Below are positions 12,001 to 30,000 of a DNA stretch of 64,000 bases, one piece after another. The stretch is from an uncultured Trueperaceae bacterium (GTDB lineage Bacteria > Deinococcota > Deinococci > Deinococcales > Trueperaceae). Each line of letters opens with the position of its first letter. Position 1 is the first letter of the stretch. The stretch lies in the NCBI GenBank assembly GCA_963799485.1, contig CAWCXJ010000009.1, positions 128,001-192,000 on the forward strand, in the 5' to 3' direction. Made by a program: the position numbers.

Positions 12001-15000
12001 TCGGATCCCAACAAAAAACCGCAGAACTTTTGTACTCTACGTTTTTTTGTTGGTCCGTTAAACAGCTACTCGACCGTGACGCTCTTGGCCAGATTACGCG
12101 GCTGGTCAACATCGCGCCCGAGCCGCGCAGCGGTTTCGTAAGCCAAAAGCTGGAGCGCCACCACGTTGACAATCGGTGAGACGAGCTCGAGGGTTGCCGG
12201 GACATAGATCACAGCGTCGGCGTGCGCGGCGATGCGGGTGTCGCCTTCGCTGGCCAGAGCAATCACGATGCCGTCCCTGGCCCGCACCTCTTGCAAGTTC
12301 GAGATGGTTTTGTCATACAAGGCCGAGGCGGTAGCGACCGCTACGACCGGCATGTCCGAATCGATGAGCGCAATCGGGCCGTGTTTCATCTCGCCGGTGG
12401 CGTAGGCTTCGGCGTGGATGTACGAGATTTCTTTGAGTTTGAGCGCACCCTCCAAAGCCGTTGGATAGTTCGCACCCCGGCCCAGAAAGAGGTAGTCACG
12501 CTTGTCTTTGTAGGTCTCGGCAATCCGGGCGACTTCGGCGCGGGTTTGCAGCGTCTCTTCGACCAAAACCGGCAGCTGCCGCAAGGCGCTGATGAGTTCG
12601 GCGGCGCGTTCACCGCTGAGCGCACCCTTGGCGCGGCCTAAAAAGATGGCCAACAGTTCAAACGCCGCGACCATCGCGGTATAGGCTTTGGTGCTGGCGA
12701 CGCCGATTTCCGGGCCGGCGTGGATGTAAAGAACGTCGTCGGCCTCGCGGCTGATGGATGAGCCTTTCGAGTTCAGGATGGCGAGTGTTTTTGCGCCCTG
12801 GGTTTTGGCTTCGCGGAGGGCCTCGAGCGTATCGATCGTCTCGCCCGACTGCGACACCACCACGCAGAGCGTGCGGTCATTCAAGACCGGCTCGCGGTAA
12901 CGAAACTCGCTGGCAATCTCGACGTCTACGGGGATACGCGCGAGCTTTTCGATCAGATACTCGCCGACCATGCCCGAGTAGTAGGCGGTGCCGCACGCGC
13001 TCACGACCACCCGGTCGATGTCGTTCGGATCGAGCTTCAGCCCCAGCTGCACGTCCGCCCCGTTAGCAGCAAAGCGCCCGCCGAGCGTGTTTTGCAACAC
13101 CGTGGGCTGCTCGTAGATTTCCTTGAGCATAAAGTGCTCGAAGCCGGCCTTTTCCGCCGCTTCCGCGTCCCAATCGATGGTAGTGCTGCTGCGCGCCAAC
13201 ACGTTGCCGCCGAAGTCGGTAATCGTCACGCCGTCCCGGGTCAACAGCGCCATATCACCGTCGTGCAGGAACACGACCTCGCGGGTATACGGCAAGAGCG
13301 CCGGTACGTCGCTGGCGACGAAGGTCTCGCCGTCGCCGAGACCCAGAACCATCGGGCTGGTGGCTCTGGCGGCGACAATCAGGTCGTGGTCTTTGTGCGA
13401 CACCACGAGCGCGTACGCGCCCGTTACCTCGCGCAGGGCGCTCCGCACCGCCGCGACCAGATCGCCCTGATAGTGCGCTTCGATGAGGTGAACTATGACC
13501 TCGGTGTCGGTCTCGGAAGCGAAGACGTGACCTGCTGTTTGCAACCGCGACTTGAGCGGCAGGTAGTTTTCGATGATGCCGTTATGAATCACCGCGAGCT
13601 TGCCGTCTTCGGACAGATGCGGATGCGCGTTGACGTCGTTGGGTTTGCCGTGCGTCGCCCAGCGTGTATGACCGAGGCCGAGCGTGCCGGCGAGCGGTTT
13701 GGTTTGCAGCGCGGCGGCTAGAACCTTGAGCTTTCCGGCCCTTTTGGTCACCTGAAGCGCGTCTTCGTTTTTGCCTGAAATCACGACCCCGGCGGAGTCG
13801 TAGCCCCGGTACTCGAGCCTTTTGAGCCCGTCTAGAATTACCTCCGCCGCCTGGCGGTGTCCTACATAACCCACGATGCCACACATAAAAGTCTCCTATA
13901 TCAACATCTGCTATCAACAACAAGGTCTGCGCGTGTTTAGACGCAGCCACACAATACCTACAGGCCGCTGACCTCACAGGCACGCCTTCAGGTTTTTCTA
14001 CCGGTTTTCGTAACGACTTTTTGCGCCGGTTGGGATTCCGGCAGGACTCGAGCATCAAAAGACGGGAGGGGCCCGCAGACAGCTTCGCATTTTCGGTACG
14101 GTTCGGGATGATAGCGCCGTCAACCGTTACCTTATCTTTTACCACCCGAACGCAATATATATGCGTGTCCGGGGGTAAAAGCCCTCCACCTCGTCACCTG
14201 ACTTGCAGCCAGCACTCGTGGCGCTAACGGTATCGGCTTATAAAACCGGCTTGGAACGCATAACCTCTAGAGGTGTAGCGCTTATAACCGGCTCACTAGA
14301 TAAGCTAAAACCTGCCGCAAATCAGGGCTTGCGCTTTCCCGAGAGTCTTCCCTCGCCCTCCTCCCACGGCTGCCCGACAACGAACATCGTGTGCAGCGCG
14401 TTTAAGACGCCCCGGTTCGCGGGGGCAATCTCACCGCTCTGCTCGAGCAGCGGATGAGCCAAGGTAGCCGACTAATGTGAACGGAACATGAAGCGCGTCA
14501 GGTCTCCGCCCGCGACATCCTCGGGTCCGGGCAGCGTAGCGCCCTGTGAAGGTCCGTGCAGAGGGAGAGCGGCAGTGTCAGCGCCGCACCTTAGTATTCA
14601 CCCAAGAGCAAGAGAAGGTTTCATTTTCGGTTCACCTTTTTCGTTTAAGTTTTCAGTGTTTTATAACGACCTCCAAAAATACTAGTTGGAGGTTCCTTTC
14701 GGAAGCGACGAAGTTTGTTCCCTATGTGGGCGCTTGGAGCAGATGGAGCTGGTAGCGCACCCGGCCGAAGCCGAAAGGACGTTGAGGTGAAGTGTTTCAA
14801 GTGGGTACCGTCGTTTTTGTTGTTTTTACAGTTCGCAAAGGAGATGGTTTAGATGAGCCGCCGTTCATCTCTCGCCCCCCCCCACAGCTCAGCGCCCGAA
14901 ACCGTGCCCGTCAGCCTTTTTCTGGGCGCACGCGTACTGCTACCGCTGCTACTTCTCTTGGGTATTGCCGCTTGTAGTACTGCGCCTACCCCTGCTACGG

Positions 15001-27000: not shown

Positions 27001-30000
27001 CCCAGTGGCGGCACCTGGCACCGTTTATCCTTTATGGCCTCGGGCAGAGCGCACTGCTTCTTGCGCTACTCTTTGGCGCTGGTAATGAGGCGCTGCCGGG
27101 GGTTGCGCTTTTCGCAGTCGTGCTGCTGATTGCCGAGCCACAGCTGTTATGGTTGCGGGGGCAGCTCAACCGCTACCTCTGGAAAGGGCAGGACGCTGCC
27201 AGTTACGCCTTCTTCGCGCGTCATATCATCGTCCGCTACACCAGTGTCTACCTGCTCCCTTTTCTGCCAGCAGTGCTCGTCTTCTTCTATCCCACCCTGT
27301 TTAACCCGCAGTGGTTTTTTCACCTTGCCGGGTTTGCGCTTTTTGGCATGATCTTGGCGTTGGCGCTGGTGTCGCTGGCGTTGGGAGATAGCCTCATGCC
27401 GGCGCTGGTTTTTGCTGTCGGCGGAGCGCTGGTGGTGCTCGGCTTACCTTTTTTCTGGGTAGCTGGTACCATGGCGCTGGCAGAATTTGCGATTCTCTTC
27501 AAGCGCAGCGCGCAGCTAGGCAGCTACGGTGTCTTCCTCCTCTAGCCGTATGCCACTAGCGGTGTTTTACGGTCACGGCGAAGTGGCTACGTTGCAACGC
27601 TTTCAGCGAGTGGTACTTCAAGCGCCCCACTACTCGAACGAAGACGTATGCGCGCTTAAAACTGCCAAAACCTCCCCCCTTGCCTACTTGAGCCTCGGCG
27701 AAGACGTTGGAGAGGACGCTCCCTGGCACCGCTCCGAACGCAACCCGGCCTGGTACGGACACTATATTCAGGCGGCGCACCCTGGCTGGTCAGCGCAGGT
27801 CCTAAAAACGGCCCAGATGCTTTTAGCGAGGGGCTTTGAAGGGTTTTTACTCGATACGCTAGACACGGTCGATCTGTTCCCCGAAGACCGCGACGCCTAT
27901 CTGCAGTTGGTTGCAGACCTTAGGCGTTTAGCGCCTCGAGGATATCTGCTGGCGAACCGGGGATTCTCGTTGCTGCCGGAGCTAGCTGAATATCTTGATG
28001 GGGTTTTGTTTGAAGCGTTTTCAAGTACTTGGCAAACCGACGGAACGACCGGGGCGCTTCCAGAGGGTGATCTCAAGATAAATGCAGACCGGGTAAGCAA
28101 GCTCAAAACGCTTGGTTTGGACCTCTACGCGCTTGATTATGTCGACACGCCTGCACTCGAGGCGATCACTCGTGACCGCGCCCAAGCGAATGGTCTAGTG
28201 CCGCTGATAAGTAACCGTAACCTTACTAAGCTTTGTTTTTAAGAGAGCTTGTTTCTTGCTCGAGCTCAGTATGTAAAGTTACGAGTCGAATAGGGTATGT
28301 GGACACCAAACGCCCAAGAACCAGTCTAAGAACTCCTTTCAGGTGCATAAGCTACCAGAGCAGTAACACCCGCAAGCAGATAAGAATAGCCGAGACGGTG
28401 GCGTAAGCGAGGTAGTGTGCTGCTTTTCGTTCGTAACGGACGACTAAACCACGGCAGTTATCCTGCCAAGCGTTGACCCGCTCCACTTGCCAGCGCCTTT
28501 GACTGGCCGGGTACAACTTCGGCTTCGGTCCCTTGCGGCGACGCTTGCCGCTTCTCTTTCTTTCGGGTACGGCAGCGCGGATGCCCCGAGCCCGCAACGA
28601 CCGCCGGCGGTCACGGCTGTCATAGGCTTTGTCCATAGCGACTTCTAAAAGACGGGTTTTGGGACGACCCCGCCCCGCTTTAGGAACCCGTATCTTTGCA
28701 AGCACAGCGAGAGCCAAACTCGATTCGGCGGTGCTGGCGCTTGCCAGGGACAAAGCAACCGGAATGCCGCGGGCTTCACTTGCAACCATCAACGTAGAGC
28801 CTTTTCCTTTGTACCCGTGGTCGATGTTGTCGCCCCCTTTTTGCCGACACAAAGCTCCCGTCTAATGTGCCCTCGTCGAGACTGAGTTTCCCCTTTTGGT
28901 AATGACCACCCACTTACTGATAAGCTAAGAGACGATCATTGATTCAAAAACGTATAGCTGCACTGCTTGCAGCAGTGAAAACATCGTAAGAAATGGCAAG
29001 AATCGCTACGGTAAGCAGCAGTTCAAGTGCAAGGATTGCAGCAAACAAGGGGGGCTTGAGCCGAACGTCAAGGATAGCGAGGCACGAAAGCAAGAGATTC
29101 TCGCGGCTTACCGAGAGCGTCCGAGTATGCGTGGGATCAGGCGTATCTATGGCGTCAGCCAACCCACCTTGGCGAAGTGGCTCGAAAAAAGCCCGGAGTT
29201 GTAAGCTCAGCGAGACTGTGAGTGAAGCTCGACCAGATGACGTGCTCGAACTCGATGAAGTCTGGTTATTTGTCCACGACAAAAAGCAGAAATGCCGGTT
29301 ATGGACAGCCATGTGTCGCCGCACACGGCAGCTTGTTGCCTTTGTCATAGGTGATCACAGCGCCAGAACCTGTACCCGGCTATGGGCGAAACTTCCCGCC
29401 ACCTACAAACGTTGTCACAGCTTTAGTGACTTATGGGTTGCGAAGCCCTCCGATAGGAGACGTTTACACTAAAGTCTTTTCTCAAGAAACCCATTGCAGC
29501 GTTGCTAAAGGCGCAGGTGAAACCAACCATATGGAACGTTGGCGCAGCACGCTTAGGCAGTGGACAGGTCCGGAAGGCTGGAACTTCGCACCCTTGTGGT
29601 GTGCCGCTTTGTCCAAGACAACGCCTAGCCCGTTATGTTCGTAAAACCCTCTCGTTCTCCAAGTCCGACGCCATGCATCATACTGTTACCAAGTGGTTCA
29701 TCGCTGAGTACAACTTAGGCTGTATCAGCTAGCGTTTAATCATTACCTGCGTTTCTTGGGACGACTTTTCCGGCTGTCCCGCTTTGAGTTTCTCCAGCAG
29801 CGCTTTGTACTGCGCTCTGTCTGCGTATTATGTCGAATTCGAGAAGATAGTGGCTCTTACGAAAGTTTTGTGGTAGATGTAGATGCATCGGGACTTGAAA
29901 CCTAGCGGTGCAGCTAGCAGCATAGAGGATGCTTGACATCCTTTTCCCAGGTTGCATCGTTGAAATGTTCGAAATCCACGAGCAAGGCTTGGTGCTCACG

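Follow-up and report, generated by a model that had tools for sequence, protein, structure and literature searches.

Is the Agd3/PelF cluster of this Truepera species switched by c-di-GMP through RNA, and in which direction would such a switch act? Pel systems are the standard example of c-di-GMP action through a protein receptor, and we know of no regulation of bacterial Agd3-type polysaccharide operons. The cluster sits within the 64-kb window (the whole stretch of DNA analysed), and its nine ORFs were read with Pfam and NCBIfam. Domain searches confirmed the gene list of the genome-wide survey's note: an Agd3-type deacetylase, two GH114, two OEP, one DUF4874/4832, PelF and a membrane protein. 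The genes and their flanks are as follows.

12066-13886, - strand, glmS (glutamine-fructose-6-phosphate aminotransferase), amino-sugar precursor maker and divergent neighbour (Pfam SIS and GATase_6/7)
14853-18065, + strand, agd3, Agd3-type (CE18 and CBM87) lipoprotein deacetylase of 1070 aa (Agd3_CE, CBM87_Agd3, HSNSD-CE)
18611-19396, + strand, GH114 glycoside hydrolase, Ega3-like (Pfam PF03537, 280.1 bits, cut-off 27)
19596-20981 and 20978-22003, + strand, overlapping OEP (TolC-like) outer-membrane pair (OEP family matches)
22233-23831, + strand, DUF4874 and DUF4832 protein (domain matches)
24220-24672, + strand, 150-codon ORF from a conserved GTG, in-frame agd3-paralog remnant with the CM4 region alone left
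24772-26232, + strand, PelF-type GT4 glycosyltransferase with DUF3492 (NCBIfam NF038011 equivalog)
26229-27545, + strand, membrane protein with a MOP (MATE/MurJ/Wzx)-like fold in its predicted structure
27529-28242, + strand, second, divergent GH114-like hydrolase (PF03537, 31.1 bits, cut-off 27)
28352-31553, transposase fragments bounding the cluster (DDE_Tnp_1 on the - strand, split ISL3 on the + strand; domain matches)

The product is probably a Pel/galactosaminogalactan-like sugar polymer. The deacetylase carries CBM87 and CE domains (41.4 bits for CBM87_Agd3, 49.6 bits for Agd3_CE) with motifs CM1-CM4 (DD, HxxxH, R, H) of family CE18, and a profile search matches it to 6nwz (E 1.7e-44). 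Its residues D337, D338, H429, H433, R547 and H611 align with D377, D378, H510, H514, R613 and H668, the catalytic residues of Agd3 given in the available text of PMC7229062. Among 24 homologs all are invariant except R547, which is nearly so. The C-terminus is made of 89-aa repeats, encoded by a 267-bp tandem repeat (17028-17914). PelF is assigned by NF038011 (155.9 bits, cut-off 100), DUF3492 (162.5 bits) and a GT4 domain. The adjoining membrane protein (438 aa) has no Pfam family, and the PelG family PF16933 has no match in the genome. Its model (pLDDT 82.9) shows a conserved cytoplasmic N-domain at residues 24-86 and the MOP-like fold over residues about 94-438. Foldseek alone gave a weak match (E 0.03); in the comparison of the model with structures the top 14 matches are MATE, MurJ or Wzx proteins (Z 11.7-19.3, about 326 residues aligned). 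PelG is a member of the MOP superfamily, and the modelled fold suggests that this protein is likely a PelG-like exporter.

The c-di-GMP-II riboswitch was reportedly described by Lee et al. in 2010. Using cmscan at the gathering cut-off (53.5 bits for RF01786), we found the family at 14692-14775 (62.1 bits, E 2e-11) and 24126-24208 (62.3 bits, E 1.8e-11), both on the + strand and covering model positions 1-84 of 84. All four matches in the genome are above the cut-off, with none further at E<=0.001; the other two are at C6:190309-190391 (+, 67.3 bits) and C13:253454-253537 (-, 58.8 bits). Thus the four full-length aptamers of 58.8-67.3 bits in the survey's note were re-found. Each lies on the same strand as, and directly 5' of, secreted-polysaccharide or surface-protein genes. 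The aptamer on C13 precedes, as the note had it, a GH115_C protein heading an export and polymerase locus (GH115_C, OEP, OEP, HlyD, Polysacc_synt_3, GT47-like, GT2, Wzy_C, GT4), and that on C6 heads a 783-codon ORF with no real family match, again in agreement. The genome has 17 GGDEF matches, in line with the >15 GGDEF/EAL proteins counted earlier. The elements of the two leaders are listed below.

14620-14650, + strand, promoter-like stretch found by reading in both leaders (TTCAT..TTCAC..TTAAG; possible -10 TAAGTT)
14670-14692, + strand, P0 hairpin (CCUCCAA / UUGGAGG) directly 5' of aptamer 1, predicted in all folds
14692-14775, + strand, c-di-GMP-II aptamer 1, with G at position 61 (14751) and C at position 70 (14760)
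14771-14779, + strand, CCGAAAGGA, stretch pairing in register 2 with the P1 5' strand 14694-14702 and containing the leader-ORF Shine-Dalgarno AAGGA
14787-14852, + strand, 21-codon leader ORF with a GTG start aligned to real AUGs, its TAG abutting the agd3 ATG in the same frame
14807-14848, + strand, hairpin (-13.4 kcal/mol) within the leader ORF, burying the agd3 Shine-Dalgarno AAGGAG (14838-14843) in a U-rich arm
24126-24208, + strand, c-di-GMP-II aptamer 2, paralog of aptamer 1, with P1 5' strand UGUGGG against UUUCGG and C at position 70 (24193)

A generic sigma-70 scan returned nothing at 14620-14650. The P0 hairpin is retained with altered letters in the alignment of related leaders. The P1 5' strand of leader 1 has two possible partners. 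In register 1 it makes 6 bp, with all 6 of 6 inner pairs, and in register 2 it makes 9 bp; three same-genus paralogs show 5 against 10, 5 against 8 and 6 against 8 bp. Folding favours register 2 by 5.2 to 7.1 kcal/mol and gives the leader-ORF Shine-Dalgarno an unpaired fraction of 0.00 in register 2, compared with 0.49-0.60 in register 1. The P1 5' strand can pair over 8-11 contiguous positions with a downstream purine tract in 9 of 10 related leaders, and a start codon follows 0-10 nt on. In five of these the tract and start belong to a real secreted-protein gene, as its Shine-Dalgarno and its AUG. GTG 14787 and GTG 24220 align (MAFFT) with AUGs of the related leaders, and the leader ORF itself looks like the relic 5' end of a gene for a small secreted protein. 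Pair counts give the alternative helix only moderate support: 82.7% of cells are paired, compared with 39.8-66.4% when slid, and four pairs show double changes, while 55 of 500 shuffles attain as much pairing as observed and two rows are misaligned. In paralogs L032, L069 and L024 the AUG abuts the purine tract with zero spacing, so the tract is no working Shine-Dalgarno there. GTG 14787 is predicted to be mostly paired in long-context folds.

We favour, tentatively and at somewhat less than an even chance, a translational ON switch in leader 1 (14670-14852), in which the P1 5' strand serves as anti-Shine-Dalgarno and the leader ORF is coupled to agd3. The Agd3/PelF cluster would have been placed behind a resident class-II c-di-GMP riboswitch leader. 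With no ligand, 14694-14702 would pair in the slipped register with 14771-14779 and hide the leader-ORF ribosome site; with ligand, it would be kept in the aptamer P1 with 14765-14770, leaving that site exposed. Ribosomes on the leader ORF would then melt the hairpin that covers the ribosome site of agd3 and come to a halt at the TAG just before the agd3 ATG. This hairpin is predicted to be more stable than every ligand-dependent competitor, so control of agd3 would hinge on leader-ORF coupling. The outcome would be agd3 ON, perhaps with the downstream genes too. Co-transcription of the genes after agd3 is uncertain because a 546-nt gap (18066-18610) precedes the GH114 gene. In C. difficile the four class-II switches work in the ON direction, by the available text of PMC6366702.

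The opposite direction would follow if register 2 were the true ligand-stabilised P1, with CCGAAG bulged, and binding hid the ribosome site. Repression of matrix genes by c-di-GMP is contrary to the usual logic and counts against it. Register 2 is indeed the longer helix in four of five members, and it keeps the sixth pair (U:A, U:G, C:G, U:A), which register 1 does not (U:G, U.U, C.C, U:A). However, P1 begins immediately after ACCGG in all other aptamers, and G73, beside the P1 start, touches the ligand (PMC13715770), where a 6-nt insert should disturb the pocket. Moreover, the alternative partner lies 3-8 nt farther on in five related leaders and is outside the aptamer, since it is the gene's own Shine-Dalgarno. 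We regard an OFF switch as quite improbable. Still less do we expect the ligand to choose between read-through and termination at the U-run 14813-14828, which we judge very improbable. A U-rich run does lie about 40 nt past the aptamer, AAAGGACG is able to pair with CGUCGUUU, and the metagenomic Agd3-CofD-PelF locus L223 employs a terminator in which the P1 3' strand forms the 5' arm, an ON design. But no credible terminator was found in leader 1, where the best hairpin is weak (-7.7 kcal/mol, z +1.18) and is matched in folding by 180 of 200 shuffles, and a terminator scan was empty for both leaders.

The ON reading takes c-di-GMP as the presumed ligand, and the ligand pocket shows deviations. 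With positions numbered as in 3Q3Z (PMC13715770), A69, C71, C72 and G73 are retained in both aptamers, but both have C at 70, and aptamer 1 has G at the ceiling position A61. In a set of 50 aptamers from Deinococcales, 48 have A at A61 and aptamer 1 alone has G (1/50); A70 is likewise A in 48, the remaining two being aptamers 1 and 2. PMC13715770 has A70 intercalated between the bases of the ligand, so affinity or ligand may differ here. An A70C subclass of Trueperaceae might then sense another dinucleotide, or c-di-GMP at a much shifted threshold. C70 does recur in nine more aptamers of Trueperaceae or Deinococci genomes (64.3-76.3 bits, all over the cut-off) with varied and intact helices, often as the first of a tandem pair with an A70 partner, and a single-nucleotide change gave cGAMP binding in a class-II aptamer (PMC13715770). 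That change is a deletion in P1 and differs from A70C, though, and A69 and G73, the readers of the two bases, are unchanged. We give a changed ligand little credence; with nine other natural C70 aptamers, C70 may be a tolerated variant.

Leader 2 is a copy of leader 1. Positions 24121-24228 are 87% identical to 14688-14795 over 108 nt, and 24385-24500 are 77.6% identical to 16677-16792 inside agd3. Residues 77-115 of the ORF at 24220-24672 are 72% identical to Agd3-like residues 609-647 (E 2e-15), the only matching stretch; CM1-CM3 are absent and the ORF does not qualify as CE18. In relatives' loci agd3 is directly upstream of pelF, the place that this ORF has here. Listing it as a gene of no family ('g02870', 24157/24220-24672) is therefore rejected in favour of an agd3-paralog remnant by sequence match. 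Of the 6 inner P1 pairs aptamer 2 keeps only 4, not contiguous, and it is among the four lowest of the 50 aptamers, 46 of which have 5-6; forcing P1 costs 11.7 kcal/mol in leader 2, compared with 7.5 in leader 1 (folding). By its sequence aptamer 2 looks damaged. With P1 weakened, leader 2 may show a poor response or none, and the pelF-MOP-GH114 genes may be read constitutively from it or by read-through. The earlier count of two riboswitches in one cluster holds for the two RF01786 matches, but not for their independence, as one leader was duplicated and the second copy stands before an agd3 remnant with P1 weakened.

Both leaders could also be decaying relics that came with duplicated DNA and sense nothing now, the cluster being constitutive or under another regulator. 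The weakened P1 of aptamer 2, its place before a pseudogene remnant, the sole G at A61 in aptamer 1 and the flanking transposase fragments all agree with this, as does the available text of PMC6366702, where only 11 of 16 predicted C. difficile c-di-GMP riboswitches are functional. Yet both aptamers are over the cut-off with P2, P3 and the pseudoknot intact, the leaders have diverged less than the coding remnant, as expected under RNA selection, and leader 1 retains a full P1 plus the alternative helix. We consider decay unlikely, though less so than the other alternatives. A bolder and improbable combination joins a Trueperaceae-specific A70C subclass (11 natural copies, often first of tandems) of changed ligand or threshold with a horizontally acquired Agd3/PelF cluster that twice captured one module and the start of its former gene; a Pel/GAG-like polymer would thereby come under a second messenger at the RNA level, via a relic leader ORF.

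The survey's note had read the RNA as doing the job of PelD in a riboswitch-only regulon. Its statement that the cluster has no GGDEF/GAF-type receptor gene is borne out, as no GGDEF, GAF or PilZ domain was found in the nine ORFs by domain search. PelD (PF16963) has no match in the genome, a weak search since control genomes also gave none, and no PilZ was found in the genome. Neither part of that reading is supported. None of 20 related Agd3/PelF loci carries RF01786, and PelD is also absent there; missing PelD is thus the norm for this cluster type, and RNA does not generally replace it. PelD, besides, acts on the enzyme complex, and a riboswitch acts on expression. The genome has a 944-codon ORF in which three MshEN domains were found, a class shown to bind c-di-GMP in the available text of PMC5013675 and PMC11731258, and this MshEN-domain ATPase leaves a riboswitch-only regulon unsupported. 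The riboswitch-Agd3-PelF arrangement is rare, and the scope is narrow: this genome and only two or three metagenomic lineages. If true, it would be a second, RNA-level c-di-GMP route beside the PelD-type receptor. One leader with one reporter would offer a simple handle on a Deinococcota Pel/GAG-like matrix under c-di-GMP, a riboswitch module would be movable with the first codons of an old gene and reused by coupling, and the A70C copies are a natural test of class-II pocket tolerance.

The c-di-GMP-II family is typical of clostridia and deinococcus in the available text of PMC9495176, and operons of bacterial Agd3 homologs, including Deinococcus-Thermus hosts, were published by Bamford et al. 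2020 (PMC7229062). No riboswitch-Agd3/Pel link was found in the literature searched, so what is new is the link between them, as the survey's note expected when it allowed that only the gene association would be new. Relative to the RF01786 norm, the aptamers here are likewise full-length over the cut-off, have the letters of P1, P2, P3 and the pseudoknot, and occupy 5' leaders of genes for surface or matrix products; they differ in C70, G61, the weakened P1 of aptamer 2 and the Agd3/PelF cluster as regulated genes. The Bamford operons share the three-domain Agd3-like deacetylase, cytoplasmic glycosyltransferase, multi-spanning membrane protein and GH114 genes, as far as the accessible text goes, which is silent on regulation. 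The present cluster differs in opening with a riboswitch leader, in having a second agd3 of which only a remnant is left, and in carrying the OEP pair and DUF4874/4832 as an insertion in the interval from agd3 to pelF. The Pel systems pelABCDEFG of P. aeruginosa and pelDEA(DA)FG of Bacillus cereus, as the accessible part of PMC13254593 gives them, share a PelF-family GT4, an extracytoplasmic deacetylase (Agd3-like here), a membrane partner (here with a modelled MOP fold) in PelG's place and c-di-GMP as the likely signal. The PelD, PelE, PelA, PelB and PelC families were not found here and the PelG Pfam model has no match; any c-di-GMP input would act on expression via RNA, in contrast to allostery via PelD. 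The class-II ON switches of C. difficile (pilA1, CD2831, CD3246; PMC6366702, available text) share the aptamer class, adhesion genes there and the proposed ON direction. They act by transcription anti-termination on terminator platforms, whereas the platform proposed here is translational, with a slipped P1 register that would release a ribosome site and a leader ORF that would pass the signal to agd3.

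The window carries two c-di-GMP-II aptamers (RF01786) in and beside a cluster of agd3, GH114, an OEP pair, DUF4874/4832, pelF, a MOP-like membrane protein and a second GH114. The main features are as follows.

14692–14775, forward strand: aptamer 1, RF01786, full length, 62.1 bits
14853–18065, forward strand: agd3
24126–24208, forward strand: aptamer 2, RF01786, full length, 62.3 bits
24220–24672, forward strand: ORF after aptamer 2
24772–26232, forward strand: pelF
26229–27545, forward strand: MOP-like membrane protein gene
55637–55757, forward strand: SAM-I riboswitch, RF00162, 64.8 bits (cut-off 44.4)

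The matches come from cmscan with Rfam 15, run at gathering thresholds (53.5 bits for RF01786). Across the genome (3.66 Mb, 15 contigs; the window spans C9:128001–192000) there are four RF01786 matches, every one above the cut-off. All four aptamers of the genome-wide survey's note are thereby re-found at their positions, and the ORF content behind them matches its description. The aptamers are real. Their class and the type of cluster are both known already, while the pairing of riboswitch and cluster is new and rare.

The same note counted two riboswitches in the cluster. Both are present, but they represent one leader that has been duplicated: 24121–24228 is 87% identical to 14688–14795 over 108 nt (blastn). 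Further on, 24385–24500 is 77.6% identical to 16677–16792 within agd3 (blastn), and the ORF after aptamer 2 shares 72% identity (E 2e-15) with residues 609–647 of the Agd3-like protein. By its sequence, this ORF is best described as an in-frame agd3 remnant without CM1–CM3. Because the leaders and agd3 pieces are paralogous, and agd3 lies directly 5' of pelF in relatives G017, G036, G059 and G047, the ancestral order is reconstructed as leader-agd3-pelF-MOP-GH114. In the present genome a full copy heads agd3-GH114-OEP-OEP-DUF4874/4832, and a gutted copy precedes pelF. Transposase fragments are found 3' of the cluster. The G+C content drops from 0.63–0.68 to 0.53–0.60 near 10 kb (1–10000 vs 10000–44000) and is low through the cluster and beyond; this drop and the IS fragments at 28352–31553 suggest a large region that is acquired or atypical. 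In a synteny test for in-place replacement, the paralogous leaders of the same genus have no glmS beside them and their lipoprotein has no homolog in this genome, so synteny points to no particular origin.

The two sensors differ from the class in their pockets. In the class-II pocket the ceiling is A61, G-alpha is read by A69 and G-beta by G73, and A70 intercalates (PMC13715770, a 2026 structure paper). Position 70 is C in both window aptamers and position 61 is G in aptamer 1; these are the only C70 pair and the only G61 among 50 Deinococcales aptamers. A C70 pattern scan of 185,579 species gives 14 matches, nine of which are RF01786 aptamers of Trueperaceae/Deinococci (64.3–76.3 bits) and five unrelated. 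The helices of these nine are intact and varied, and they are often the first of a tandem in which the second aptamer has A70. Since nine other aptamers carry C70, it is no accident of this genome. c-di-GMP is the predicted ligand of the window aptamers, and C70 could affect affinity or ligand. Aptamer 2 also shows a changed P1 5' strand, UGUGGG instead of UUUCGG, which is uncompensated and leaves two contiguous pairs in either register. It makes four of the six inner P1 pairs (five or six in 46 of 50 aptamers), and the predicted cost of P1 is 11.7 kcal/mol vs 7.5 kcal/mol in leader 1. Aptamer 2 may be deaf, and one copy of the two is likely impaired.

A generic scan of leaders 1 and 2 found no terminator or promoter, and there is no credible terminator in either leader. 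A search of sequencing runs gave no RNA run that contains this DNA, and small shares in DNA runs. Unconstrained leader folds miss the aptamer, a pseudoknot, and were not used for its structure. The P1 5' strand of leader 1 can pair in two registers: 6 bp with CCGAAG (the Rfam P1) or, slipped by six, 9 bp with CCGAAAGGA, which contains AAGGA seven nucleotides 5' of GTG 14787. When the aptamer core is enforced, folding prediction favours the slipped register by 5.2–7.1 kcal/mol with the SD fully paired, and in the P1 register the SD is 0.49–0.60 unpaired. Three same-genus leaders also carry the double CCGAA; in them the slipped helix keeps its sixth pair (U:A, U:G, C:G), and P1 does not. A pattern search for such a leader across 185,579 species returns only the 3 copies already known. 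A stronger indication is that in five leaders of other Deinococcales (L007c, L013c, L236c, L239c and L242c) the P1 5' strand makes 10–11 pairs with the SD of a real gene, and this SD is 1–3 nt 5' of the AUG of a small secreted-protein gene. GTG 14787 and GTG 24220 align with these AUGs (MAFFT). The alternative helix is 82.7% paired vs 39.8–66.4% when slid, and 55 of 500 shuffles are equally high, which is moderate support. From the two registers, the real-gene SD pairing and the aligned starts we infer an ON design, in which the P1 5' strand would act as anti-SD and ligand binding would free the SD. At L223, another Agd3 locus, the terminator uses the P1 3' strand, likewise an ON design, and PMC6366702 describes the class-II switches of C. 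difficile, four in all, as ON.

GTG 14787 opens 21 codons in frame with agd3, and their stop, TAG 14850–52, abuts the ATG of that gene. This ATG (14853) is backed by a lipobox and by the MSR(R/S)S common to a 65% homolog. The agd3 SD lies inside a predicted hairpin of -13.4 kcal/mol within the leader ORF; translation of this relic ORF would open the hairpin and couple to agd3. Another hairpin (CCUCC... / ...GGAGG) is predicted directly 5' of the aptamers at 14670–14692 and 24101–24126 and in the same five leaders of other Deinococcales. It is preserved with altered letters (CCAA:UUGG, CCGC:GCGG, CUCCG:CGGAG) and its 5' arm is anti-SD-like; 5' end protection or a part in the switch are possible roles.

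RF01786 itself is common in the group, with an E<=0.001 match in 47 of 61 genomes, above the cut-off in 42, and frequent tandems; the search was positive in the D. radiodurans control. A review describes the class as typical of clostridia and deinococcus (PMC9495176). The genes after the aptamers in relatives (n=26) mostly belong to no Pfam family (19), the others being GH26-like (2), GH115_C (2), Big-domain (2) and DUF1349 (1), and their N-termini are mostly signal or lipoprotein peptides. Aptamer loci of the C13 type (GH115_C) and the C6 type (large lipoprotein) recur in the genus (L063, L070, L068, L021). In L236, L239, L242, L007 and L013, from Trueperaceae and Deinococcaceae, up to three consecutive c-di-GMP-II aptamers precede paralogous small secreted-protein genes; the proteins have about 165–195 aa, start with MKK(V/I)FG... 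or MR(K/R)GF... and have no Pfam family. Within Deinococcales, the class seems to have these genes as its main target.

The link with Agd3/PelF is far less frequent. The five other Truepera genomes have no PelF type (0/5) and no Agd3 core, as matches span the C-terminal repeats only, and 20 Agd3/PelF loci of relatives have no RF01786 at gathering threshold. With an nhmmer profile from 50 aptamers, 4 of 154 Agd3 loci in genome and metagenome collections have a same-strand upstream aptamer; Rfam confirms three (59.2, 59.2 and 60.5 bits), while the fourth scores 38.2. L160 and L164 are 98.5% identical and L166 is 71%, giving two lineages. L160 has the order aptamer, 275-aa ORF, Agd3-like protein (1081 aa), PelF and membrane protein; identity with the proteins of the window is 57% for PelF and 47% for the membrane protein. 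L223 has a two-component system, the weak aptamer, Agd3, CofD and a PelF-like protein. The link is therefore found outside this genome too, though not often, and the aptamers there belong to other subtypes. The search for c-di-GMP-I (GEMM-I) upstream of Agd3 covered 24 of the 154 loci. The closest Agd3 and membrane-protein homologs (60–81% identical) are in assemblies outside the leader survey.

The Agd3-type lipoprotein (1070 aa) has the Pfam domains Agd3_CE, CBM87_Agd3 and HSNSD-CE, and a profile from 24 homologs matches the Agd3 structure 6nwz with E 1.7e-44. The base, metal triad, CM3 arginine and acid residues named by Bamford et al. (PMC7229062) correspond to D337, D338, H429, H433, R547 and H611, invariant or nearly so. 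The C-terminal extension is a 267-bp tandem repeat (17028–17914, 3.3 copies, 88% matches) that encodes 89-aa repeats. Homologs of about 700 aa are without these repeats, and in genomes of the same genus the repeat domain occurs in other proteins. The agd3–GH114 gap (18066–18610, 546 nt) contains neither a convincing ORF or terminator nor an Rfam match, and may hold an internal promoter. An adjacent pair of TolC-like OEPs, about 460 and 340–363 aa, occurs in both riboswitch-led polysaccharide loci, at 19596–22003 and in G000:C13:239000-254200 (L226), there followed by HlyD; in this diderm the two loci may share such a pair as a module that exports polysaccharide across the outer membrane. PelF matches its NCBIfam equivalog with 155.9 bits (cut-off 100). 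From PelF, Agd3 and GH114, with what PMC13254593 and PMC7229062 describe, the polymer would be a partly de-N-acetylated alpha-1,4-GalNAc.

For the 438-aa membrane protein, Pfam gives no family at any E up to 10, and in the protein Atlas it falls in unnamed clusters only, mostly of Actinomycetota. Its AlphaFold model (18 homologs, pLDDT 82.9) gives a weak match with Foldseek alone; when all 48,161 chains are searched, the top 14 rows are MATE, MurJ and Wzx transporters, aligned with residues ~94–438 of the model (Z 11.7–19.3). Residues 24–86 of the N-domain are conserved and cytoplasmic, with invariant E23, R24 and R25. The whole helical N-domain (residues 1–95, 26229–26520) has no family and is also invariant at L33, R35, C41 and E43, among others. 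It is a candidate regulatory or PelF-docking module, and a signal input at the protein level is possible.

The proposal of a riboswitch-only c-di-GMP regulon is overstated. The PilZ and PelG models have no match in the genome, nor has the PelD model, for which the control genomes are silent too, so that search is weak. GGDEF has 17 matches. However, there is a 944-codon ORF (G000:C1:9762-10988, reverse strand) with three MshEN domains, like the Thermus PilF traffic ATPase. MshEN is described as a c-di-GMP-binding domain class (PMC5013675, PMC11731258), and this ORF is likely a protein receptor of c-di-GMP here. For this genome it is fair to say, as a functional analogy, that RNA does the job of PelD; an actual replacement would be a further step. 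Related clusters manage with neither PelD nor a riboswitch. Compared with Pel operons, the MOP-like membrane protein occupies the place of PelG.
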